Source: Candidatus Bathyarchaeota archaeon | GTDB taxonomy: Archaea; Thermoproteota; Bathyarchaeia; Bathyarchaeales; Bathycorpusculaceae | Assembly: GCA_963832745.1 (NCBI GenBank) | Contig: CAWHVC010000003.1 | Coordinates: 64,001 to 128,000, forward strand | Reading direction: 5' to 3' | DNA length: 64,000 nt | Shown: one piece after another, positions 5,883 to 53,153 of the stretch | How positions within the stretch are numbered: position 1 is the stretch's first letter | How the letters are laid out: every line of letters starts with the position of its first letter | Made by a program: the position numbers and the translations under genes | Notes under the pieces: model-generated | What the model was told of the DNA's origin: nothing | Database searches by the model: none | The model's input: the letters and a program-made list of their open reading frames with translations, nothing else

Positions 5883-6053
5883 AGGTGTATGACGATAGGC
5901 GGAATTTAAACATTCAACCTCCCACCGCACAGTCAGGTTTTAGCATAATTGTAAAGTCCATAAACTGATTTCTTTGGTCTTTTCTTTCGCTCCTTGCACC
6001 ATGGGTTGGCACTTTCATGCAAAACCTTCCAAACTATTGAGGCTTTAAAAGAG

Positions 6054-6099
6054 GTGGCGGGTGGGGAGGGATTTGAACCCTCGACCCCCAACTTAGGAG
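6054..6099 (+). repeat. att site (left copy), displaced 3' half of tRNA-Arg
   Basis: GTGGCGGGTGGGGAGGGATTTGAACCCTCGACCCCCAACTTAGGAG, identical to 14184-14229. Confidence 0.97.
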
Positions 6100-6998
6100 T
6101 CCGTACCTTTGGGAATAAATATTCAAGATTCAGAAGTCCTTTAGGAGTCTTACAATCACCAATAGTCATGGAATTAAACTTTGAAGAGTACAAAGTTTTC
6201 TTAGCTAACAAATACACAAACAAACAGTATGCAAAAGCACAATTCAGCAATGCATCAAAATACTCAGAATGTTTAGAAAACCCCGCAAAGATGTTGTCTT
6301 TTCCAGAGTCAAAAAGAAAGAACATCCTCAAAGCTATGGTCTGTTTATCCAAGTATTTGGGTGTCTATGAAGAGTACAAAGCTAAACTGAAAAGCTACGA
6401 TATTAAATGGGGCAATGAAGACACAGCCTTTAACGGATTCTTAGCAATATTCAACCATAAGCACGACACATTACCGGATTATTATAAAGAAATACAGCCA
6501 ATACTCCACGAGAACGAGAGGTTATTTCTAAGATTCCTTGCCGTGACCGGATTAAGGAAGAATGAAGCAATAACCGCATTCAACATGATAATAGAATTGA
6601 ACAGTAAGGGAGAGCTTAGCGAGTATTACAATTCAGAGCTTCAAGTTTTAGAACATTTCAAGTATGGTAAATTATTTTTGAGAGGCACTAAGAACGCTTA
6701 CATCAGCTTTGTTTCAAAAGAACTAATCAATCAAATATGCGATTCTGAGCCAGTTACCTATAATGCTATACACTGTAGGTTTATGAGAAAAAAGCTTAAG
6801 CTGAGACTCAAGGAACTAAGAAGTTACAATAACACTTACTTAAGGAAAAATGGCGTTATCTCTGAACTTGTAGATGTGTTAGCGGGCAGAGTTCCTAAAA
6901 CTGTATTCTGTAGACACTACTTAGGGGAATCAATGAAACCGTTTAGTGCTCAAGTTTTAGGTATAGAAGCTAACTTGGAGAACTCTTTGATTCAATAA
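6054..6998 (+). CDS. int: Tyrosine integrase, C-terminal catalytic fragment int(C)
   Basis: FLAVTGLRKNEA (catalytic R), LKELR (K-x-x-R), LAGR, RHY (catalytic Y); begins inside the att repeat (VAGGEGFEPSTPNLG). Confidence 0.9.
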   Translation: MAGGEGFEPSTPNLGVRTFGNKYSRFRSPLGVLQSPIVMELNFEEYKVFLANKYTNKQYAKAQFSNASKYSECLENPAKMLSFPESKRKNILKAMVCLSKYLGVYEEYKAKLKSYDIKWGNEDTAFNGFLAIFNHKHDTLPDYYKEIQPILHENERLFLRFLAVTGLRKNEAITAFNMIIELNSKGELSEYYNSELQVLEHFKYGKLFLRGTKNAYISFVSKELINQICDSEPVTYNAIHCRFMRKKLKLRLKELRSYNNTYLRKNGVISELVDVLAGRVPKTVFCRHYLGESMKPFSAQVLGIEANLENSLIQ

Positions 6999-7851
6999 GG
7001 AGTTAAAAAAGGGTGAGGCATGGAAATATCGCTACTGCTATTAGATGATGCTATTAAGACAGCTTAGAGAAAAAGAGAAAACTCAATGCTCTAAAAGCTG
7101 ATGGGAAACAGAAAGCAGTATGGGACTTACTTACTATAGAACATAAAACTACAGCCCTCCAACTCTTCTGTTTTCTCAAAATACACCCACAAAAAAAAAT
7201 AAGTTGAGTATTCGTAGCGAAATTCGTATTTTAAACACTTATTTTAACAAAAGAAGCCAGATTTAATCCCTGTTTCAGAGGTTTTATTTCAACATCAAAA
7301 GACCATGTACTTGCCCTACCATTCTGCTTTTTCCACAGATACACCAACAAAAAAATCTGCTGAGCAGATATTGATTTTAAATTCCCCATTTTAAATTTAA
7401 GTCACAGAATAACCCCTATTTAGAACAAAAAGTGCAGGTCTTATCATTTACACAAGCGGTCATAAACAGTGGCGTTACGACCCTAAAGCGGAATGGGACC
7501 TATTTTAGGGTTGAAATATAATCCAGTCACTGGATATCCCATAAAAATGAAGTAATTGTTAAAAGAAGGTCAAAACAAGTAGCATTTAGAAATTATTTTT
7601 CGAGTAGTGAACTGTTTAGGGTAGAGATATAATTGCCTAAAGCAATACCCCTAAAAAATAAAGCAATTTAAGAAATAAGGGCAAAACAAAGCGATTTATG
7701 AGCAGTTTATTTCATGTTTTTATTTGAACCATAATCCTTTAAATTTAGTTTTCTCAAAAGGTATATTGTGCATCCATTAGCTTGATTTTTATGAGGTAAG
7801 AAGCTTACCCTTCTAACCCTCTTTCAAGCTACATTCGGTAAGGAATGAAAA

Positions 7852-8418
7852 ATGAAGAAATTTACTCCAAGATATGAAAGCGGTATTCCATTAGAGAAAG
7901 CGGTAGTCAACTTCTTGGGTAAAATGGGCATATCCAATTCTCATAACGACTTTTCACCTTCAAGATATGTGAATGATAACCACAATGTTGTCGATGTAGT
8001 TCTCAAAGAAAGGGGAGAAGACAAAGCACTTATCGAGTGTACTAATCCAAAAGAAACCACTTTTATGAATAACAGGATAATGAAGTCCAAGATTGAATAT
8101 TTTCACCGAGCAGACCCTGAGCATAAGAATCTCTGGGTTTTGCTTATTAGCTTCTTAACTTTCAGCAAAGAAATAATGGAGTTAATAATCAAAGAAGGAA
8201 TCCAGTTAGTAGTTCTTAACAAGAGAGTTACAAGCGAGAATATTCACAAAGTTATCAGGGGATTATTCACCAGCCCACTATTCACTCTGTTACGACCCTT
8301 TAGTAGAAAGTACCGAGAGAACCCAAGAAAGGCAGAACCAACCAAAACCAGAAAGACAACTTTAACCGATAAGGTTCCAGCTAAGAACAAATCATCTAAA
8401 CGTGTAAGAGAAGAGTAA
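7852..8418 (+). CDS. PD-(D/E)xK-like nuclease (element-encoded)
   Basis: LEKAVVNFL...VDVVL...LIECTN pattern resembles restriction/resolvase-type nucleases; basic C-terminal tail. Confidence 0.5.
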   Translation: MKKFTPRYESGIPLEKAVVNFLGKMGISNSHNDFSPSRYVNDNHNVVDVVLKERGEDKALIECTNPKETTFMNNRIMKSKIEYFHRADPEHKNLWVLLISFLTFSKEIMELIIKEGIQLVVLNKRVTSENIHKVIRGLFTSPLFTLLRPFSRKYRENPRKAEPTKTRKTTLTDKVPAKNKSSKRVREE

Positions 8419-8557
8419 GAGTATAGACAGCTATTACTACTTATATCAACATCAAGGGCTAAGAAAAAATCTGCAAATACTCAGAGTTATTGAGTTTTTG
8501 ACTGGTTATAATAGGAAAGTAAAACCCGAAAAATAGCAAATTTAGGATGAAAAATTT

Positions 8558-8917
8558 ATGCCAACAACAAGAAGCATAGGAAACGGATTATTGACTACAG
8601 GTAGGCGAGTTTACAGAGGTAAGGATATGCAATTAGTCTCTTGGACTCAAAACCAATGTAAAGTATGTGGAAGATTTCTAAGCAAAAGACAAATGCTCTA
8701 TTGTGAAAAGCATGGACAGGGAAGTAAAGAATATTTTATTTTAAACAAAGTGAATTATCATAGGTACAATAAAGACTATCGAAGAACACACCATAAGCAA
8801 GAACTGGAAAGACAAAGCAGGTACAATAAACAGCATCCATACATCAAAAAGGTTAGATGGTTCATTCAGAATAAACCTCAAAGTCCGAAAGTAAGACCAC
8901 ATTCTCAACTCAGTTAA
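8558..8917 (+). CDS. Basic zinc-finger protein, paralog of 11627-11983
   Basis: GNGL..TG.R...LV.WT...CKVCGRFLSKRQMLYCEKH. Confidence 0.65.
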   Translation: MPTTRSIGNGLLTTGRRVYRGKDMQLVSWTQNQCKVCGRFLSKRQMLYCEKHGQGSKEYFILNKVNYHRYNKDYRRTHHKQELERQSRYNKQHPYIKKVRWFIQNKPQSPKVRPHSQLS

Positions 8918-9181
8918 TTCCCTTCTATTGAGGGTAAAATTGCACTATGCAATACCTTCAAGGATTAATTCTTTCAGTGAATTAGGTAACTTAGAGCCTG
9001 TTTATTGAGTGTAAAAATTTACTCAGTAAATACCCCTAAAAAATGGTTATTTCACTAAAATAAAGCGTTTTGTAACCTTATATGGAGTCAAGTTGTTCGA
9101 ACCATATCACTTAAATGCTTTAGCCATCAATCATGAGATATGAGTAATAATTACAATCAATTTAGGTGTTGACTGTAATAA

Positions 9182-9394
9182 ATGCAGTCAAATAACTCAA
9201 AAAAAGAAAATACACAAGTATGCCCCTTCTGTGGTTCACGAATAAGACAAAGATGTTCATGTGGAAGCAACCATACTGTCAAAGTAGGCTTCAATGTTAA
9301 CAGGCAAGGCAAGAGACAAAGACACCTTTGCCGAGATTGCGGAAGAGTAACAATTGAAGATAAAATAATTCCTTTCAAGAAGGCAGTTACCTAA
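9182..9394 (+). CDS. Small zinc-ribbon protein (IS1 InsA-like finger)
   Basis: CPFC plus CSCGSNHTVKVG...GKRQRHLCRDCGR. Confidence 0.6.
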   Translation: MQSNNSKKENTQVCPFCGSRIRQRCSCGSNHTVKVGFNVNRQGKRQRHLCRDCGRVTIEDKIIPFKKAVT

Positions 9395-9648
9395 TGGGTA
9401 GAAAGAAAGTTTACCCAGATAACGCTTCTCGACAGCGAGCATGGCAAAAGAAACAGAAAGAGAAAGAATTACAGCAACAGATTGAGACAGCACAGAAAAC
9501 AAACAGCGACCAAGCTAATCAAAAGAAAAAGAGCTTTGAACAATTAGTAGCAAAGTGGTTTAACGGTAAGACTGTCCAGCAAGCTAAGGAAGCATTTCAG
9601 CTTTACAAAAGAACCTATCAGAGTATAGGACAGGACATGATTTTGTAG
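9394..9648 (+). CDS. Hypothetical basic/coiled-coil element protein
   Basis: TAATG coupling to previous ORF; MGRKKVYPDNASRQRAW. Confidence 0.6.
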   Translation: MGRKKVYPDNASRQRAWQKKQKEKELQQQIETAQKTNSDQANQKKKSFEQLVAKWFNGKTVQQAKEAFQLYKRTYQSIGQDMIL

Positions 9649-9662
9649 GCATCACTAAGAAT

Positions 9663-9878
9663 TTGGATGAAAGAACGTCACTCAAGAACGGTATTACAAT
9701 AGGGAATATGGAGCAGTTTCTTGAAAGCTTTGATGAGCCTATTTGCTGTCCTATATGTGGCTATTACAGAAGCGGTTTAGCAGATGAGTGCCCCGAGTGT
9801 ACATTGAAGGTAACTAACCCGAAAGCTTGGAAAGAATACCGTAGGGATTATCAACCAGCAATAGCGGTAGAGGAATAA
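9663..9878 (+). CDS. Small zinc-finger protein
   Basis: CPIC...CPEC. Confidence 0.55.
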   Translation: MDERTSLKNGITIGNMEQFLESFDEPICCPICGYYRSGLADECPECTLKVTNPKAWKEYRRDYQPAIAVEE

Positions 9879-9880
9879 GC

Positions 9881-10135
9881 ATGAAGTTTGCACACGCCAT
9901 CAGAAAGATTTTTTTCAAGTCTATTGACGCAGAGTTGGCATACCTCTACATGAATCAAGCATATCAAGAGAAGTGTATTGAGCTATTCATGAAGAATTTT
10001 AAGCTCACCGAGCGAGAATTGGAGTTACAGTCTAAGATTCTTCTGAACTATACCGAGACATTTCAGGAGTTAAAGAATGAACAAGGGCTTACAATCCCCT
10101 TCCCAGAAAAAACGGTTGTAAAATATAATGTCTAA
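9881..10135 (+). CDS. Hypothetical element protein
   Basis: ORF in a tightly packed same-strand run, preceded by GAGGA. Confidence 0.5.
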   Translation: MKFAHAIRKIFFKSIDAELAYLYMNQAYQEKCIELFMKNFKLTERELELQSKILLNYTETFQELKNEQGLTIPFPEKTVVKYNV

Positions 10136-10272
10136 AAAAGGTAAAATTATGAATCATGAAAAATGTGGATGTAATAGAAATGGGCGAGTAGTTTACTCAG
10201 ACCCAGAGCAAAATAATAATCAAGTGTCGAGGTTCAGCCTCGACTTAAGGAAACAGAGGGAAGTGAACCCGA

Positions 10273-10806
10273 GTGAGTGACCAATTAGCTAACGACCAAA
10301 TAAAAGAGCGTAAACTGATTCTTAGAAACGAAATTGAGCAGCTTACGTCTAAGTTAGGCAATCCAGACGCTTACACAACTAAAGAAGGTCAGCCTTTCCG
10401 TATCAGTAAAGAGTATGTTATCGCTAAAGAGGAACTAAACAAGAAAGTAGAAGAATACAATAGCTTGATAGAAAGCTTTGTCGTTGCGAACATAAAACTT
10501 AACAAGGTAATAACTTTCACAGATGGAAACTATACCATCAAATATATCCCAGAGAAAAACAGGTATGACTTTTACATTGGTAACGAATACCGAAAAGGAA
10601 CAGTAGCGTTCAATGAAGAGCTAACCGAGGCTACAGTGACATGCCCCACTATTAACTCAGACACTAAAGGGGAACTTGTGAATCACATCTACAAAGTAAA
10701 GATACTTGAGCCGAAAGACATCGTTGTAAAGAAAATAAAACCAAAGCCATGCTCTAAGATAGAAGAGGGTTTAGCCATGGTTAACCAAGATGTGCTATTG
10801 GGCTAA
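10273..10806 (+). CDS. Hypothetical element protein
   Basis: 177-aa ORF with coiled N-terminus and beta-rich C-terminus. Confidence 0.55.
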   Translation: MSDQLANDQIKERKLILRNEIEQLTSKLGNPDAYTTKEGQPFRISKEYVIAKEELNKKVEEYNSLIESFVVANIKLNKVITFTDGNYTIKYIPEKNRYDFYIGNEYRKGTVAFNEELTEATVTCPTINSDTKGELVNHIYKVKILEPKDIVVKKIKPKPCSKIEEGLAMVNQDVLLG

Positions 10807-10937
10807 AATGGGTTACGTTGTTAAGGATAAAGTTACAGGGCAATTTAGAAGACAAACTCCCGAAGAAATGGAAGCAAAAACAAGACCTGCTAAACCCGAA
10901 GGAAAGAGAGGAATAGCTCTTTTTAGAGGGGCAAGAA

Positions 10938-11213
10938 ATGAGCCTACAGGATAAGCAACGACAAATCAAACAACGGGACCAGAGAATACGAGAGCTTGAA
11001 ACAGCAAAGAATAGACTGATAAACAATAAGATTAGAAACGATAGAGCATTAGACCAAGCAGTAAGGAAAGCTAAAGACGATGGCAGAAAGTTCGTTATCG
11101 AAAAGCTCAAGACAGCGATACCAACTACAGCCCCAAGTTATTTTAAACCAGCAGCAAAGGCGTTACTCTCAGACCTTCAACGAATAATTAAAGATGAAGA
11201 GAAAAGAGCGTGA
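10938..11213 (+). CDS. Coiled-coil hypothetical element protein
   Basis: QRQIKQRDQRIRELETAKNRL heptad pattern. Confidence 0.55.
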   Translation: MSLQDKQRQIKQRDQRIRELETAKNRLINNKIRNDRALDQAVRKAKDDGRKFVIEKLKTAIPTTAPSYFKPAAKALLSDLQRIIKDEEKRA

Positions 11214-11626
11214 AGTTGGACATGGTTTCTAAGCTGGAAAGCTTAGAGCTTAAGCTTATCGTGATGTTAAGCCTTGAAGAACCAAACAGAGCAGGATGCC
11301 AAGGCTCTTAGGCAAATCACGAACAGGGGTCTTTATCGGCTGGTCTAAGGAACGCTATGATAAGTACATCGAGACTCATGTTTTTTATAAGGACTACGAC
11401 CTCTCACCGAGCTTAGGGAACAGCACGAAAGAGAACTTAGCGATTGGAGAAAAGAGAGGGACCACACACTTAGGGTAAGCCTACACATTACTCTTAATCC
11501 TAACTTGACTGATTACGAGAAATGGAAGGAAATAGAAGAATCATATCCTTTGGAACCTGAAAGGGTAAGAGGCTGGATTCTATCGCGGTAAAAGCATCTT
11601 AAAATTTGGAGAAAGATTAAAGAACG

Positions 11627-11983
11627 ATGAATAAAAAAAGTAGAAACTTTGGAAATGGCTTATCCTCTACAGGGTATAGAACATTTAAGAAAATCTGGAA
11701 TCCTTCTACAAAAGAAGAGATTAACGTACTTGTGGCATGGACAGATAGGCATTGTATTAAATGCAAAAGATTCCTCTCTTTGAGACAGCATAAGTATTGT
11801 TCTAAATGTAAACCAATAGAAGACGCTAAAATAGCAATTAAATCAACTACATCATGGCAAAAGAGAACAGGTAAAACATTTCAGTATTATCTTCTCATCA
11901 ACTCAGAATTTAAAGCAACAACGAAACTTAGAGGGTTTGTGAGTAGACATGCAGACGAGCTTGAAGTAGGGCAAATAGTCTAA
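11627..11983 (+). CDS. Basic zinc-finger protein, paralog of 8558-8917
   Basis: GNGLSSTGYR...LVAWTDRHCIKCKRFLSLRQHKYCSKC. Confidence 0.65.
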   Translation: MNKKSRNFGNGLSSTGYRTFKKIWNPSTKEEINVLVAWTDRHCIKCKRFLSLRQHKYCSKCKPIEDAKIAIKSTTSWQKRTGKTFQYYLLINSEFKATTKLRGFVSRHADELEVGQIV

Positions 11984-12035
11984 AGTTTCCTTATTCAACT
12001 TTACCGAATATTTTTGTTCTCGGTAATCCTTTATT

Positions 12036-46643: not shown

Positions 46644-47759
46644 TTACTTTTTCTCTTTATTCGCTTCCACATCTGCGCCAGCTTCGAGCTTTGCAGGCAA
46701 GTACTCGTCAACAATGTATGTTAAACCGTAGCGGCTGAAAGCTTCAAGTTCCGTTTTGCGCCGGATTTTTAGGAAAGTTTTGATTTCGCGTTGCCAGATG
46801 GGGTCATTTTGGTATCTTGGGTCTTTTTGCAGTTCATATAGACGTTTAATGTCTACTTCATCAAGGGGGTCAGTTGGCAGCTTATATTCGATGATGTCGC
46901 TTGCCCAAACACCACTCCAAACCGCATCTGGCGTGTTTAAATCTCGCAAGTGAGCAGCGTTAGCTGAACCGGAAATAATGACTTGGGCAATGTGCATTCC
47001 CCAAGGGTCACCATCAGTTAAGATGAAAACGGGCAAATTAAGTTCATCATGCAACCGCCGTATGAAGCTGCGGGTTTGTCTTGGTGCTTGTCCACCACAT
47101 GAAATTAGAAGCGCTTTGTGTTTGCTATGGACGCTTTCTTCGATAAACCTTGTGAAAAGAGCGCCTTTCTCTATGGCTATGACTTTGTCAGCAGTTGTTT
47201 TTAGGAATTCAGAAGACGTTACTGCAGGTCCGATAAGGACGCCGTCTGGGTGACTGGTTAAATTAACAGATTTTCCTTCATAACCTGGAACAGTATAGGC
47301 GATGTCTAAGTCGCCAAAGATGGCGCTGCGTTCTTCGGGAAAAATGTTAAAATCTTCACGAGCAAAACCTGTGAGAGTTTCAAGATCTGTGATGATGTTG
47401 TTTGACTCCTGCTGGTCAGCAAAAGTCATTTCGTAAGCTTGCGCTGAGTAGTAAACATCTCTTAACGTGGAGGTTTTACGCTGACTGGTAAGTTCATTGC
47501 TGAACAATGCAACCCAAGCGAGTTGCGTGAAGGGTTTAATATGACGGATGTTTCGAGTGCTTCTTCCAACACTTTTCTCGCCTAAAACGTACTGACGCAG
47601 GGCTGAGTCGTAAGTGATGTTTTCGGTTGAACGGCTGGGCATGTTAACTGTTGGAAAGACCCCTTGGTCTAGTTGATTGTATACTGAAGCGCCAAAGTCC
47701 TTAAGACCTTTAAGGACCGCTTGTTTTCTTTCGCTGATTTTAGCTTTCTTCTGTGCCAT
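46644..47759 (-). CDS. top6A: DNA topoisomerase VI subunit A
   Basis: TLRDVYY, AIEK, TDGDPWG, ELEAF. Confidence 0.96.
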   Translation of the reverse strand: MAQKKAKISERKQAVLKGLKDFGASVYNQLDQGVFPTVNMPSRSTENITYDSALRQYVLGEKSVGRSTRNIRHIKPFTQLAWVALFSNELTSQRKTSTLRDVYYSAQAYEMTFADQQESNNIITDLETLTGFAREDFNIFPEERSAIFGDLDIAYTVPGYEGKSVNLTSHPDGVLIGPAVTSSEFLKTTADKVIAIEKGALFTRFIEESVHSKHKALLISCGGQAPRQTRSFIRRLHDELNLPVFILTDGDPWGMHIAQVIISGSANAAHLRDLNTPDAVWSGVWASDIIEYKLPTDPLDEVDIKRLYELQKDPRYQNDPIWQREIKTFLKIRRKTELEAFSRYGLTYIVDEYLPAKLEAGADVEANKEKK

Positions 47760-49281
47760 ACTTTTGCACACTCTTTAATAATTTTTCAATGTCAGGCCGT
47801 TTAGTTTGCCCTGCCAATGTTGTTGAGAATTCTGCGATTCTAGGCAGATATTTGCTGAAGATGCCGAGACGTTTCTTTTCCATGTGTACGTGTTCTTGCC
47901 GGGTTAAAAAGTGCGAAAGCTGCCTTGAAACTTCACGGAGTGCGTTTGCTTCTTCTTTACGGACTTCAATTCGGTCGGAAATAAATTCTTTACCAACCGT
48001 TTTGTAAGGCACTTTTGTGCTGCAAACATGAATCACGATGGCAATCGGCATGTCTGGGGAGACTTTGTAGCGTCGCCAGTTCATAGCTGAAATAACCTTG
48101 TAGGCTACGTCGCTTGCTTCATCATAAAGCAGTGGAATCTTGTTGGCAAAACGGTAAATCACAAAGCCGCCTGTTTTTGGAACGCCTCCACCGTACGCGA
48201 CGGCCATTTCCACGATGAAGGGGTGGCCAGCATACGTGGATGGTTTACGTTGATGAACCACCAGGTACTCAGGGTTTAACTCTTTCACGACACCTGCTTT
48301 AAGCAGTTCTTCACCTAAAGGTGAAAGGCAGCTTGCGTCAGGAGGCAAGAAATCCTTGTACTTCTTAAGGTTCTGCATTAACTTTACAATTTCTTCATGT
48401 GTAAGCTTCTTAGGGCTCTTGTTTACAGGGATTCCTGCAAATTCAAGGAATTTTTGAGCAGTGATTTCACCGACCCTATGGAAATGTTGCCTAAGGAAAG
48501 TGGACATATTAGTGCAGGTGGTTAATTGGATAAGACGCTGGAGTAACTCGACATCCACGCCGTAAGGATGCGGAAGAGTTTCCGTTGGAGGATCAGGCAT
48601 GTTTGTTGTGGCACGGGTAAACTTGTAAAGCCTGCCTTTTGGGTCAACAAAGGTAATGTTCGCGTACGGATTAACCATAGCTGTCTGCTTGAAGTACTCA
48701 ATAATTTTAGGCATAGCCCTCAGGTAGTCGCCTTCAAGAGAGAATTCAATGATTGTTCCACGCCAACCGTCCTTGTTAATGAGGACTTTACGGTCTAAAA
48801 TTATAGGTTTGTTACGTTGGATATCAATCATTAATTTGAAACTGTAAATTTTTTCTTGACCAGTACTTGAAGTAATCATGACAGGTTGGTGTGTCGTGAT
48901 TTGTCCATATAGGACAGCCATTTTCCCGCCTAAACCGAAGGTGCCTCTGGCCTGTTTAAGCTTGTATTTTGAACCATAAAGGACTTGACCAAAAGCGGAG
49001 GGAATGAATCTTGGTTGAATGCCGCTGCCGTTGTCTTGAACGCGGAGCTTGTAGATTTGGGTGTCCTTGGTGGCTTCTCCTTCAAATGATAAACGCACGT
49101 AAACGTCTGGAGGGATTTTTTGGCTTTCTGCGGCGTCAAGCGAGTTTTCTACTACTTCACGGATTGCCACGAATATGCTTCTTGACGGATTGGTTAAGCC
49201 TGCGATGTCTCGGTTTCGGTAGAAAAAGTCCGATACACTCATTTCTTCAAAGGTTGCTTGAGACACTTGTCGCTTACCCAC
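47740..49281 (-). CDS. top6B: DNA topoisomerase VI subunit B
   Basis: EVVENSLDA, DNGSGI, RGTFGLG, RFANKIPLLYD. Confidence 0.96.
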   Translation of the reverse strand: MGKRQVSQATFEEMSVSDFFYRNRDIAGLTNPSRSIFVAIREVVENSLDAAESQKIPPDVYVRLSFEGEATKDTQIYKLRVQDNGSGIQPRFIPSAFGQVLYGSKYKLKQARGTFGLGGKMAVLYGQITTHQPVMITSSTGQEKIYSFKLMIDIQRNKPIILDRKVLINKDGWRGTIIEFSLEGDYLRAMPKIIEYFKQTAMVNPYANITFVDPKGRLYKFTRATTNMPDPPTETLPHPYGVDVELLQRLIQLTTCTNMSTFLRQHFHRVGEITAQKFLEFAGIPVNKSPKKLTHEEIVKLMQNLKKYKDFLPPDASCLSPLGEELLKAGVVKELNPEYLVVHQRKPSTYAGHPFIVEMAVAYGGGVPKTGGFVIYRFANKIPLLYDEASDVAYKVISAMNWRRYKVSPDMPIAIVIHVCSTKVPYKTVGKEFISDRIEVRKEEANALREVSRQLSHFLTRQEHVHMEKKRLGIFSKYLPRIAEFSTTLAGQTKRPDIEKLLKSVQKYGTEES

Positions 49282-49688: not shown

Positions 49689-49883
49689 ATGAGTGAAGGC
49701 GACACTTACTGGGTAACTTTAGCTGAAAAAATAGTTGGAATAACCTTAATCATCATCAGCGGATTAATGCTTTACTGGACTTTAACAACAGACTTAGGAA
49801 TGGTCACTTGGTTGTTTGCACTCTTAGGAGCAGTAGTTTTAATCATCGGCATCTTCCTACTGCTTGTTAGAGCACCAGAATAA
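49689..49883 (+). CDS. Small two-TM membrane protein
   Basis: Two hydrophobic helices. Confidence 0.65.
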   Translation: MSEGDTYWVTLAEKIVGITLIIISGLMLYWTLTTDLGMVTWLFALLGAVVLIIGIFLLLVRAPE

Positions 49884-49930: not shown

Positions 49931-50374
49931 TTACATTGCTGGCGCTGATACTTCCTGCTTCATCGCAAGATAAATTTTCATTTCAATCTCTTTGCTTTTC
50001 TGGTCAACCTTGCCGTCAATATCAAGTTTTAAATTGTTAATCCAGCTAAGTCTCGCAGAATTTGTCATGCAAACTACTTGACCTTTAATGGTGCCTTTCA
50101 TGTCGGGTTCTTGCATTCCAGTACCGCTTCCGGTAAGCATCACATTATCGCCTTCTTTTGTTGTTTCTGCCGCTTTGATTTGCCAATCCATTGTTCCGTC
50201 CGGTTTAATGTTAGCATCAACTGTTTCTGCATGTATGGCGTGGTAGCGGCCTTTTACTTCACCTGAAGAATTGTACTGCATCGATGCACCGTTTTGATTG
50301 AAGTCTTTAATGATTATTGCATCTATCTTTTCTTTGATTTCAACTATTGGTTCTCTTTTTTCCATAAAATTCAC
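49931..50374 (-). CDS. Hypothetical beta-rich protein
   Basis: 147-aa ORF with alternating beta-strand pattern and TNSARLSWIN motif. Confidence 0.6.
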   Translation of the reverse strand: MNFMEKREPIVEIKEKIDAIIIKDFNQNGASMQYNSSGEVKGRYHAIHAETVDANIKPDGTMDWQIKAAETTKEGDNVMLTGSGTGMQEPDMKGTIKGQVVCMTNSARLSWINNLKLDIDGKVDQKSKEIEMKIYLAMKQEVSAPAM

Positions 50375-50534: not shown

Positions 50535-52043
50535 ATGTCAAAGCCTGATAAGTCGCGTAACCAAAACTGCACTGAATCAAACCCTGAAGGCTATCTTCCA
50601 CGTTCGCTTTATGTACTTGAAAATGACCCGCGTGCAAACATCAGAGAAATAGTAAACACCATCTTTCCAGACAAACTAATGATGGTTTTATCGCTTATCC
50701 TAATCCCAATAATCCTTTTACCATTCATAATACAACTGGACACGGTTGTTTTAGAATTTTTTGACATTTGCGACGGCATAATTTTAACACTTTTCATCGC
50801 AGAATACACAACGAAACTTTACTGTGCAGAAAACCGCTGGAAACACTTCAAATCACCATGGCACATTGTCGACTTAATCATTATTGCATTACCCTTCAGC
50901 AGGTACTTATCATTCGTAGAACTCGGCATCACAGGTTCACCATCACTCCTGTTACGGCTTCTAAGGTTGCCTAGAGCTTTGGCAGTCGGCAGCAGAGCAG
51001 TAGCCAGCAGAAGAACCAACAATAACTTCACAACCGACAAACTTGATACTGACCCTGAAATTGTGATTCGCCAAGTTGACTCTGACCTTAAAACTGTTCA
51101 TAACAATCTAACTTGGGAAGAACTTGAAGCACATGTTTCTGATAGAAACAGGCAAGAATGGATTGATTTGCATAACGTTTCTGGAGAGGGCTTCAAACGT
51201 TTAAGCGGTATACTGCAGATTTCGGAGCCTCATTTCAAAAGCGGCTTGATGGATGAGATTTATCCTCATATTGATTATTTGCAGAAGGCTTCGTTTATTT
51301 TCTTGCAGGCAGGCAAAATAAAGTATCCTGAACATGCAGATGCTTACTTGACCATTTCAAGGTCAGGAATCATTGTTATCTGCAATGGAACAAAAATCTT
51401 CACGGTTTCACGCCACAGCATAGACTTGCCCACCAGTATTCTGAGCCGAGTAAACCAAACAAGACATAACCAAACGTTCATGGTTCCAGTGTTGTACGGA
51501 ATTTTTGAGCACATGCTTGAAGATTACAAACAGATTCTAAGCGAAATAGAAATTGAAATAATAAAAATCGGTAGCACTCCACGGTCAAATTTGCCTAAAG
51601 ATTTTCTTGAAAGAATATACATGCTTGACAAGGAAGTTTCAAGGCTTGTTTCAAACCTTGTGCACTTCAAAGACTTGCTTGGGATAATCATTGCCAGAAA
51701 AGTGCCGCTTGAAGGCTTTGACAAAAACGCAGAAGAAGCATTTCAAGTTTTACAAGACAGCGCCATTTACCTTAATGAAATCGCCCATGACTCAATAGAT
51801 AACCTGCGTTCAACCATTGACTTGTACATTAACCAAACTTCATTTGAAACCAACCGAATACTGAAAATTTTAGCGGTTATAACCAGCATCGCCGTTATTC
51901 CCTCAGCTATCGGAGGAATAATGGGCATGAACCTGCTTGATGTACCCTTTGGGGTTTACCTGTGGCAGTTATGCTTCGTAATTGGGGTAGCTATGACGTT
52001 TGCAGTGTACATGTTTTACAAGCTTGGATGGCTAAAAACATAA
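50535..52043 (+). CDS. Voltage-sensor domain (S1-S4) fused to a CorA-family divalent cation transporter
   Basis: S2 F..EY..K, S3 W..VD, S4 LRLLRLPR; CorA WIDL, stalk helix, GMN signature and two C-terminal TM helices. Confidence 0.85.
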   Translation: MSKPDKSRNQNCTESNPEGYLPRSLYVLENDPRANIREIVNTIFPDKLMMVLSLILIPIILLPFIIQLDTVVLEFFDICDGIILTLFIAEYTTKLYCAENRWKHFKSPWHIVDLIIIALPFSRYLSFVELGITGSPSLLLRLLRLPRALAVGSRAVASRRTNNNFTTDKLDTDPEIVIRQVDSDLKTVHNNLTWEELEAHVSDRNRQEWIDLHNVSGEGFKRLSGILQISEPHFKSGLMDEIYPHIDYLQKASFIFLQAGKIKYPEHADAYLTISRSGIIVICNGTKIFTVSRHSIDLPTSILSRVNQTRHNQTFMVPVLYGIFEHMLEDYKQILSEIEIEIIKIGSTPRSNLPKDFLERIYMLDKEVSRLVSNLVHFKDLLGIIIARKVPLEGFDKNAEEAFQVLQDSAIYLNEIAHDSIDNLRSTIDLYINQTSFETNRILKILAVITSIAVIPSAIGGIMGMNLLDVPFGVYLWQLCFVIGVAMTFAVYMFYKLGWLKT

Positions 52044-52049
52044 GGCAGT

Positions 52050-53153
52050 TTACTTGTAAGTGAGTGTGGAGCATAACTCTTCTACGGTACGGTTAAGGGT
52101 TAATTCCGCCATGTTTCTGCCGTAATCCAGAATGCGCCGTGTGCTATCAAAAATCAGCCGCAAAACAGAGGTTACGCTTGGGTCAAGCTTCTTGCTGGAA
52201 AGCAGCATAACCAACTCGTTCTCTAAAGGCAACAGGGATTCACGTTTTGAAATCAGTTTTTCTGCATCTTTGTAGTCACGTTTGAAGACTGCTTTTATTG
52301 CATCCTCGTAAAGTTGCTGAGCTTGACCTGAAAAACTGACAATCTGAGAATAAATCTCCTCATCCAAGGGGTCCTTAACAAAGAGGGTTTCGTCATCAAG
52401 GAGTTTTTGAAAAGCGGAAAGATGGTTAATGATATTTACCGCGTTTTCACTTATGTTTTCGATATCGTTTACGGCTATGCGGTAAAGCAGGAACTCTTTT
52501 GGAGTGCGGAAACCTAATTCACGGTACAGGTTGCGTTCTATTCCATATTTTAGTTGGCGAACAATGTAAAGACCAAGACGGTTAACATCATTATGCGCGT
52601 TAATTACGCTTTCAAAGAGGACACTGTTTCGGTCTTGCAGTGCAGCTACGGCGTCACGGTTTGCAGCTAAGGCAACAATTGCCATTCGTCTGATGGCTTT
52701 TTCAATTGAGAACTCCGAATGCCTGATTAGGATTTGTAATGTGATTTCGTCTGGTGTTTCATCAATTATTTCGGAGCCCAGAAAGGTGTCACGGGCAAAA
52801 TTTTTCATTTCGATTTTGACTTTTGCAGCGTCTTTTACGTTTTTGAAGTGTATTCGTATTATGTCGGCGCCGATTGCGTAAAGTGCACGTATCATGCGTA
52901 AAGCTGATTCGGGTGACTCTTTGGGGTCCACGTTTATAACGTACTCTTTGGGTTTGGCAGAGTCTCCTGCGCCTTCTTTTTCGTTGATTTTTCTAGGAAC
53001 CAAATTTAGGGTGGAGTCTGGTTGAATGTTAAAGGCGATTTCGCTTCCCCGTTTTAGGCCAAGGTCTTGTATCCATTCTTTGGGTAGCGAGATGATGTAT
53101 GAGCCTCTGCCAGTGCTTTGGACTCGTCGGTAGCCTAGGTCTTTTTCTGCCAT
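52050..53153 (-). CDS. AbrB-PhoU family regulator
   Basis: RRVQSTGRGSYIISLPKEW (AbrB) followed by two PhoU helical repeats. Confidence 0.88.
   Translation of the reverse strand: MAEKDLGYRRVQSTGRGSYIISLPKEWIQDLGLKRGSEIAFNIQPDSTLNLVPRKINEKEGAGDSAKPKEYVINVDPKESPESALRMIRALYAIGADIIRIHFKNVKDAAKVKIEMKNFARDTFLGSEIIDETPDEITLQILIRHSEFSIEKAIRRMAIVALAANRDAVAALQDRNSVLFESVINAHNDVNRLGLYIVRQLKYGIERNLYRELGFRTPKEFLLYRIAVNDIENISENAVNIINHLSAFQKLLDDETLFVKDPLDEEIYSQIVSFSGQAQQLYEDAIKAVFKRDYKDAEKLISKRESLLPLENELVMLLSSKKLDPSVTSVLRLIFDSTRRILDYGRNMAELTLNRTVEELCSTLTYK

Follow-up and report, generated by a model that had tools for sequence, protein, structure and literature searches.

The gene described here occupies positions 50535..52043 on the + strand of a 64,000-nucleotide stretch of the genome of a Candidatus Bathyarchaeota archaeon (contig CAWHVC010000003.1, positions 64,001 to 128,000; the whole stretch is called the window below). 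As read from its sequence, it encodes a single chain with six transmembrane (TM) helices, in which a pore-less S1-S4 voltage-sensor domain is connected by a tether of ~15 residues to a complete CorA subunit of the 2-TM-GxN type. The open reading frame (ORF), which is present exactly as a preliminary description of the window had claimed, begins with ATG and specifies 502 amino acids plus stop. The reading we favor, with modest confidence, is that membrane potential modulates the gating of the predicted protein, which would be a divalent-cation channel of the CorA type. A more specific proposal, which we advance as a serious but tentative possibility, is that the protein represents the first case of voltage gating in a channel whose pore is not tetrameric: five S1-S4 sensors would gate Mg2+/divalent-cation flux through a pentameric CorA, in archaea and possibly in bacteria, acting via a cytoplasmic tether of fixed length to the CorA regulatory domain in place of an S4-S5 linker. 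The architecture and two of the three points on which the preliminary description had made its interpretation depend, namely that the fusion is not peculiar to this assembly and that the S4 arginines are conserved, speak in favor of that interpretation; the regulation by voltage or pH that it also included is putative.

Domain architecture and membrane topology

The N-terminal part of the protein matches Pfam Ion_trans (PF00520) on residues 49-154 with 29.7 bits (cut-off 25, E 4.8e-7), and this match is restricted to the S1-S4 half of the profile (positions 6-111 of 241). No S5-P-S6 pore was found after S4, since the Ion_trans match ends at profile position 111 and CorA comes next, bearing out the earlier claim that such a pore is lacking. 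Pfam CorA (PF01544) matches residues 209-496 with 109.7 bits (cut-off 27, E 2.3e-31) and is covered from profile position 6 to 292 of 292; together with the GMN motif at residues 464-466 and a second TM helix, this agrees with the claim of a full CorA in the same ORF. Both the Pfam match and the structural model place the start of the CorA domain directly after the linker of ~15 residues. When the protein was compared with solved structures by phmmer, M. jannaschii CorA aligned with residues 205-500 (E 2.2e-13), and residues 50-151 weakly matched the sensors of bacterial sodium channels (E about 0.01).

The segments follow one another on the + strand. A conserved cytoplasmic segment precedes S1 (residues 18-45, 50586..50669) and contains the motif LPRSLYVP..DPR...RE and a modeled helix at residues 34-43. 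S1 (residues 46-66, 50670..50732) has a hydropathy maximum of 2.98 and is modeled as a helix at residues 46-65; S2 (residues 70-97, 50742..50825) carries the outer acidic residue D80, the plug F87, the inner E90 and K94; S3 (residues 108-128, 50856..50918) carries W109, H110 and D113; and S4 with its cytoplasmic extension (residues 136-160, 50940..51014) carries R141, R144, P146, R147, R154 and R159. The S4-to-CorA linker (residues 161-176, 51015..51062), which is variable in sequence, nearly constant in length and predicted to be disordered, leads into the CorA cytoplasmic part (residues 177-440, 51063..51854), an alpha/beta domain followed by long helices that include the stalk into TM1. The pore-lining helix TM1 (residues 441-463, 51855..51923) was placed by the M. 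jannaschii CorA alignment, the model and hydropathy. It is followed at its outer end by the signature G464-M465-N466 (51924..51932) and then by TM2 (residues 476-496, with the basic end KLGWLKT; 51960..52022), placed by the model and hydropathy, so that the chain has the two C-terminal TM helices and the short outside loop starting with GxN.

Hydropathy detects S1, S2, S3, TM1 and TM2; S4 stays below the cut-off used, as its charges would lead one to expect. The predicted outside loops contain 0, 0 and 0 Lys/Arg residues and the inside segments 3, 4 and 2, a pattern that fits an N-in topology with six TM helices in which S4 ends in the cytoplasm at the start of CorA. The hydropathy and the charge distribution across the loops thus support the preliminary description's view that the topologies of the two domains are compatible.

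The full-length model (predicted local distance difference test, pLDDT, 74.2; predicted template modeling score, pTM, 0.55) matches the chains of T. maritima CorA in Foldseek (E 4.7e-15, template modeling score TMt 0.65-0.75), so that in the model the cytoplasmic domain and the stalk have the fold of CorA.

The fusion is authentic and occurs in several archaeal lineages

Both Pfam domains were found in 119 of the 120 best homologues returned by a word-indexed search (query included; 53-100% identity), and most of these are assigned to Bathyarchaeia by the names of their sources. When one genome was scanned for each species, 33 loci with full-length relatives at 37-87% identity were identified, which their records assign to Bathyarchaeia, Nitrososphaerales/Nitrososphaerota, Thermoplasmata, Methanomethylicia and one metagenome-assembled genome (MAG) of Methanocella, in which the match (L010) sits at a contig end. 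The frame is uninterrupted at 30 of these 33 loci, and hundreds of metagenomic proteins from five sources share the same uninterrupted frame.

For more distant members, a profile built only from the sensor segment of 19 sequences (A3) was searched against 1.84 billion cluster representatives. It produced 1911 matches with an E-value of 1e-3 or lower, of which 269 reached 1e-10 and 24 reached 1e-30. A set of 59 proteins (A4) was assembled from the 58 proteins of 400-700 residues among the 150 matches listed, plus protein P0001; Ion_trans is present in 59 of the 59, CorA in 53, and Ion_trans_2, which marks true channels, in 5. The fusion therefore occurs in at least 53 representatives of 50%-identity clusters among the 150 matches listed. 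Proteins of 200-400 residues among the matches listed contained Ion_trans in 36 of 37 cases and CorA in 5 of 37; the domain scan was confined to these size classes, with ~15 four-repeat proteins of 1600-4150 residues and proteins under 200 residues set aside. A second, distant clade (A6, 17 sequences) yielded 164 matches, with both domains in 118 of the best 120. The family comprises hundreds of sequences, in no fewer than 53 clusters at 50% identity, and so affords a choice of well-behaved members for structural and electrophysiological work. Four clusters in the ESM Atlas also contain both domains, and one of these, with 222 members, is annotated 'Bacteria 80%' on the basis of 45 members with a known phylum; it may serve as a lead to the fusion in bacteria, and only as a lead.

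Taken together, the fusion is real, old and spread over several archaeal lineages. We regard as hardly credible the explanation that two neighboring genes were wrongly joined during assembly or gene calling: we found no support for it beyond the frame breaks at three loci (L030, L032 and L035), which show that some assemblies are error-prone, and it has to contend with the unbroken frame in independent species genomes and metagenomic proteins, as well as with a long contig from a genome that is 99% complete. The homologues, the species genomes and the cluster representatives enumerated above rule out a chimera or misassembly, the possibility that the preliminary description had raised. The homologues with frame breaks are consistent with a gene that is easily lost.

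Protein P0122, encoded on a 2.68-Mb contig, likewise runs out of frame past S4; the interruptions in all these homologues are due either to assembly indels or to their being real pseudogenes.

A search for shorter proteins gave 8 matches consisting of the sensor only. All 10 of the short sequences inspected run into the start of CorA or out of frame, and the short proteins were accordingly treated as fragments rather than as stand-alone sensor genes or a split form of the system; since short matches are often cut at contig ends, split genes may nonetheless exist.

Conservation of the voltage-sensor signature

All of the S1-S4 hallmarks named in the preliminary description were found, namely F87..E90...K94 in S2, W109-H110..D113 in S3 and R141-x-x-R144-x-x-R147 in S4, together with an additional R154. 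In an alignment of 40 homologues at 53-86% identity (A1), F87, E90, Y91, K94, R101, W109, H110, D113, R141, P146 and R147 are each present in 40 of 40, and D80, R144 and R154 in 39 of 40; in 20 sequences extending down to 37% identity (A2), the sensor residues conserved in A1 are all invariant (20/20). Conservation reaches the 53 distant fusion representatives, which retain F87 in 53, E90 in 50, D113 in 52, R141 in 52, R144 in 51, R147 in 46 and R/K154 in 52. In S4, basic residues thus recur at every third position, at least three in all, and the charge-transfer centre, consisting of an aromatic plug and an acidic residue in S2 and an acidic residue in S3, is present as F87, E90 and D113.

These residues are also placed as in known channels. 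The spacing D80-(7)-F87-(3)-E90-(4)-K94 equals the S2 pattern in HMMER alignments with CaV3 and NaV repeats, the Trp and Asp of S3 align with W-N-x-x-D of solved channels, and R141, R144 and R147 are in register with R2-R4 of CaV3.2 S4. The 19-sequence sensor profile matches CaV3.2 with E 5.1e-20 when its four repeats are taken together and 1.2e-5 for the best of them, NavMs with 1.3e-7, Kv4 with about 3e-6 and Hv1 with 2.1e-5. An AlphaFold model of the sensor alone consists of four helices (pLDDT 70.4), and Kv/Nav sensors make up all 50 of the Foldseek matches listed, although these are weak (E 0.03-0.3, TMq 0.45-0.66).

S4 is as well conserved as the pore helix. It and TM1 are the two best-conserved segments of the protein, with a mean pairwise identity of 0.76 each in A1 and of 0.68 and 0.71, respectively, in A2. 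Ratios of nonsynonymous to synonymous substitution rates (dN/dS) against three orthologues were 0.05-0.06 for the sensor and 0.06-0.07 for CorA, values that are rough because dS (about 0.9-1.5) is close to saturation; by this measure, both halves appear to be under equally strong purifying selection. The identities of the two halves are correlated (r 0.72, a value that none of 2000 permutations reached) among 48 of the 59 A4 sequences, the 11 with an absent or odd CorA match having been dropped; given the kinship among the sequences, this correlation says only that the halves diverged together.

Does the S1-S4 domain sense voltage?

Several observations weigh against a voltage-modulated CorA channel. 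At the R1 position S4 has Leu138, which is invariant, and residues 150 and 153 carry no charge; with only three arginines in register, its gating charge may therefore be small. Of all the helices, S4 is modeled with the lowest confidence in both predictions (pLDDT about 50-65). The linker (residues 161-176) is the least conserved segment of the protein (identity 0.21 in A1 and 0.15 in A2), it evolves fast (dN/dS 0.36-0.80), residues 158-172 are predicted to be disordered (pLDDT below 50), and no rigid coupling element of the kind seen in VSP or SLC9C1 is evident at the junction. At E <= 1e-40 the fusion was found in only 2 of 301 sampled genomes of the class, the source genome included, so that the gene is accessory and patchily distributed. 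No conserved operon partners were found when seven neighbors from the window were compared by tblastn with the 33 loci, synteny being restricted to close Bathyarchaeia. On the CorA side, the protein scores 86.4 bits against the NCBIfam CorA equivalog TIGR00383, below its cut-off of 200.75; the Met of the GMN signature is variable, as detailed below; and the cytoplasmic Mg2+ sensor of CorA is not confirmed by alignment.

One alternative is that S1-S4 no longer senses voltage. It would instead anchor the protein additionally in the membrane, aid its assembly or stability, or form a scaffold for lipid contacts, and the CorA channel would still be gated by cytoplasmic divalent cations only. The S1-S4 domains of TRP channels, which are weakly voltage-sensitive, offer an analogy. 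The small number of arginines, the Leu at R1, the flexible and unconserved linker, the low confidence of the S4 model and the accessory distribution all fit such a module. We nevertheless consider it rather unlikely, since the buried charges and the plug (F87, E90, D113, R141 and R144) are kept almost without exception in the distant representatives, whereas a mere anchor would not be expected to keep them; the conservation of S4 equals that of the pore helix, and the low dN/dS of the sensor argues in the same direction.

A second alternative is that the sensor itself conducts, as an Hv1-like H+ path or a cation leak. It would then provide H+ coupling or counter-flux, with CorA acting as the metal pathway or as a metal-sensing oligomerizing regulator, and the protein would be a coupled H+/metal system similar to ZntB. 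Hv1 is recognized by an Asp in S1, the S4 motif RxWRxxR and three S4 arginines. With Hv1 the fusion shares a stand-alone type of S1-S4 that lacks a pore domain and the number of arginines in S4 (three), and the sensor profile matches Hv1 weakly (3wkv, E 2.1e-5; 5oqk, 7e-5); His110 in S3 is invariant in A1, the GxN motif is variable, and ZntB, a member of the same superfamily as CorA, is described as proton-driven in a passage of PMC6972854. Unlike Hv1, it is joined to CorA and has neither a conserved acidic residue in S1, where Asp or Glu occurs in the S1 columns of 3 of the 40 close homologues and is lacking in 37, nor a Trp between R141 and R144, position 143 being Leu in 39 of 40. Moreover, the hydrophobic plug F87 is invariant and the best sequence matches are to CaV/NaV sensors and not to Hv1. 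Hv channels are absent from bacteria and archaea according to a passage of the review PMC13095418. We rate a conducting sensor as improbable.

A third alternative, to which we give a similarly small chance, is that S1-S4 mainly senses another signal and relays it to CorA; this could be external or internal pH, sensed by His110, the lipid composition or a metal ion. It draws on the presence of His110 in 40 of 40 members of the near clade and of Arg at the same position, which is Asn in canonical channels, in 19 of the 53 distant members. Against it, none of the voltage-sensing residues has been lost from the conserved set, and the alternation of His and Arg at a single site is thin evidence; no ligand site was identified. 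The pH idea, which was part of the preliminary interpretation, derives solely from the His110 of S3 that is invariant in the near clade.

The codon for position 110 lies at 50862-50864. Among the fusion representatives, this position is His in 32 of 53 and Arg in 19 of 53, corresponding to two clades, and the difference may bear on pH or on charge balance in the sensor.

The CorA half and the identity of the ion

On the present sequence comparisons, the protein is best described as a member of the CorA family and not as a classical CorA equivalog. Its C-terminal 326 residues share with the CorA proteins of T. maritima and M. jannaschii the profile, the fold, the GMN at the end of TM1, TM2 and a basic C-terminus. 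It differs from them in ~175 additional N-terminal residues containing four more TM helices with the sensor signature, in scoring below the NCBIfam equivalog cut-off, in the variability of the Met of GMN and in the Mg2+-sensing Asp, D253 of T. maritima CorA, which is not aligned. In the phmmer alignment, the residue at chain index 232 of 4eeb, which we take to be D253, falls on V405, and for this reason the cytoplasmic Mg2+ sensor is not confirmed.

The GxN motif is regarded as the selectivity filter of the superfamily in a passage of PMC6972854. In A1, G464 and N466 are present in 40 of 40, with position 465 being M in 18, T in 16, A in 5 and E in 1; among the 53 representatives, 28 have GMN, 21 have another GxN and 4 have none. 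The sensor signature is thus more constant than the pore signature, indicating that ion selectivity may vary within the family. As for the preliminary assignment of Mg2+, the GMN of this protein agrees with it, and the ion carried here is probably Mg2+/Co2+/Ni2+-like; the assignment is not secure for the family as a whole, because the Met is replaced in 22 of the 40 close homologues.

In four Thermoplasmata MAGs (L031, L033, L034 and L036; 4 of the 20 sequences in A2), a three-residue deletion removes the MN of the motif, and all four retain every sensor charge. A CorA-type pore without the signature asparagine is unexpected.

A possible mechanism of sensor-pore coupling

CorA forms a pentameric channel. 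Membrane potential stimulates its flux, according to passages of PMC6972854 and PMC9276622, and cytoplasmic Mg2+ closes it, according to published abstracts. By homology, we infer that the fusion protein assembles as a pentamer like CorA, in which case five peripheral sensors would ring one central divalent-cation pore. S4 would move in the membrane field and shift the closed-open equilibrium of CorA; since CorA flux is itself driven by membrane potential (a passage of PMC6972854 states this for the family), such a shift would gate divalent-cation flux by potential.

Two coupling routes can be envisaged. In the first, S4 would place the tether under tension and thereby act on the cytoplasmic domain of CorA, at whose first beta strand the tether ends. 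Although its sequence is unconserved and disordered, the linker is nearly constant in length (gap fraction 0.02 in A1 and 0.01 in A2), which suggests a fixed-reach tether and not a rigid lever. CorA structures determined without Mg2+ show large asymmetric movements of the cytoplasmic domains, and a pull on the first CorA strand could favor such movements. This route would perhaps be aided by the conserved pre-S1 segment, in which L21, S24, D31 and R37 are invariant in A1 (mean pairwise identity 0.57) and which is a candidate docking or coupling element. In the second route, the sensor would contact the outer helix TM2 within the membrane. The channel might open either on depolarization or on hyperpolarization.

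If this mechanism is true, sensor-to-pore coupling was invented separately in the Kv/Nav lineage and here, and metal uptake in some prokaryotes is under the direct control of their energization state.

Comparison with known voltage-sensor proteins

Known voltage-sensor outputs are the tetrameric pores, one family of phosphatases and one Na+/H+ exchanger, and Hv1 conducts alone. The sensor of the fusion resembles those of tetrameric cation channels (NavAb/NavMs, Kv and CaV/NaV) in D80, in the F87/E90/D113 centre, in a Lys four residues after E90 and in S4 arginines at every third position, as well as in its sequence and fold matches. It differs from them in lacking the S4-S5 linker, the S5-P-S6 pore and the selectivity filter, in the Leu at R1, in the His that replaces the S3 Asn and in its partner pore, which is CorA and presumably pentameric. 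The protein is accordingly neither a voltage-gated cation channel of the Ion_trans type, having no such pore module, nor an Hv1, having no acidic residue in S1 and no Trp in S4.

By analogy, the fusion would work most like the sensor-coupled effectors VSP and SLC9C1, in which, as here, a pore-less S1-S4 domain and a different effector are combined in one chain and S4 leads into the cytoplasmic part. Unlike in these proteins, the effector of the fusion is an ion channel of another superfamily, the protein is prokaryotic (archaeal), the sensor is N-terminal, and the junction is an unconserved tether of ~15 residues in place of a long S4 helix or a short conserved linker. The SLC9C1 sensor is peripheral and away from the transport domain, as described in a passage of PMC13095418, and SLC9C1 is the only known transporter regulated by voltage-sensing domains according to the abstract of PMC10620092.

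The preliminary description knew of no characterized example, and our literature searches, which covered openly available papers (subscription-only papers being outside their scope), likewise found none of a sensor-CorA fusion. Papers containing both 'CorA' and 'voltage sensor' describe no fusion, as judged by their titles and the start of their abstracts; a term search of the voltage-sensor reviews PMC13661669 and PMC13095418 gave no mention of CorA; and in PMC7997004, CorA appears only within an inventory of transporters. The main text of PMC11237513, on archaeal fusions, contains none of the terms CorA, voltage or magnesium. Databases do record the two-domain architecture, under names such as 'CorA family divalent cation transporter' or 'ion transporter'. 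The sequences are thus already known, and the idea of a sensor-CorA protein is absent from the literature searched.

A sensor acting on a pentameric CorA pore would probe the generality of electromechanical coupling, and the fusion would offer a compact prokaryotic model of sensor-effector coupling without an S4-S5 linker. It would also show a direct link between membrane energization and divalent-cation homeostasis. The differing GxN motifs and the His or Arg of S3 provide natural variants for study.

Genome context and neighboring genes

The source genome comprises 3.02 Mb in 5 contigs, and the fusion is its sole Ion_trans match. The genome has three CorA-family genes, of which the fusion alone has GMN; the other two, of 320 (L002, 1423..2385 of G000:C5) and 393 residues (L003, 1303..2484 of G000:C2), both exceed the Pfam CorA cut-off and lack GMN at the end of TM1. 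Two MgtE-domain matches are located at G000:C3:510344-511337.

The fusion gene looks monocistronic, because its upstream neighbor is on the minus strand and its downstream neighbor is convergent. The upstream neighbor is a divergent ORF of 147 residues (49931..50374, - strand), which is preceded by a hydrophobic ORF of 64 residues (49689..49883, + strand); neither has a Pfam match and both are kept only in the closest 4-5 relatives. The convergent neighbor (52050..53153, - strand) combines an AbrB/MazE-like N-terminal domain with a PhoU domain, as in an archaeal PhoU-type regulator, and adjoins the fusion in the 4 closest relatives only. Further upstream, the genes for topoisomerase VI subunits A (375 residues) and B (513 residues) overlap by 32 bases (46644..49281, - strand), and their linkage to the fusion is kept at 7-9 of the 33 loci; taken with the names of the homologues, these two genes identify the organism as archaeal. 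Since synteny is limited to close relatives, the neighborhood gives no functional hint.

Scans of the 64-kb window for tRNAs and Rfam families found nothing. The stretch at about 6000-12000 of the window is low in GC (0.33-0.39), has a strong A-over-T skew of up to 0.28 on the + strand and contains short ORFs only; no convincing repeats occur in it, and the pairs of direct repeats at 6-12.5 kb are probably due to chance.

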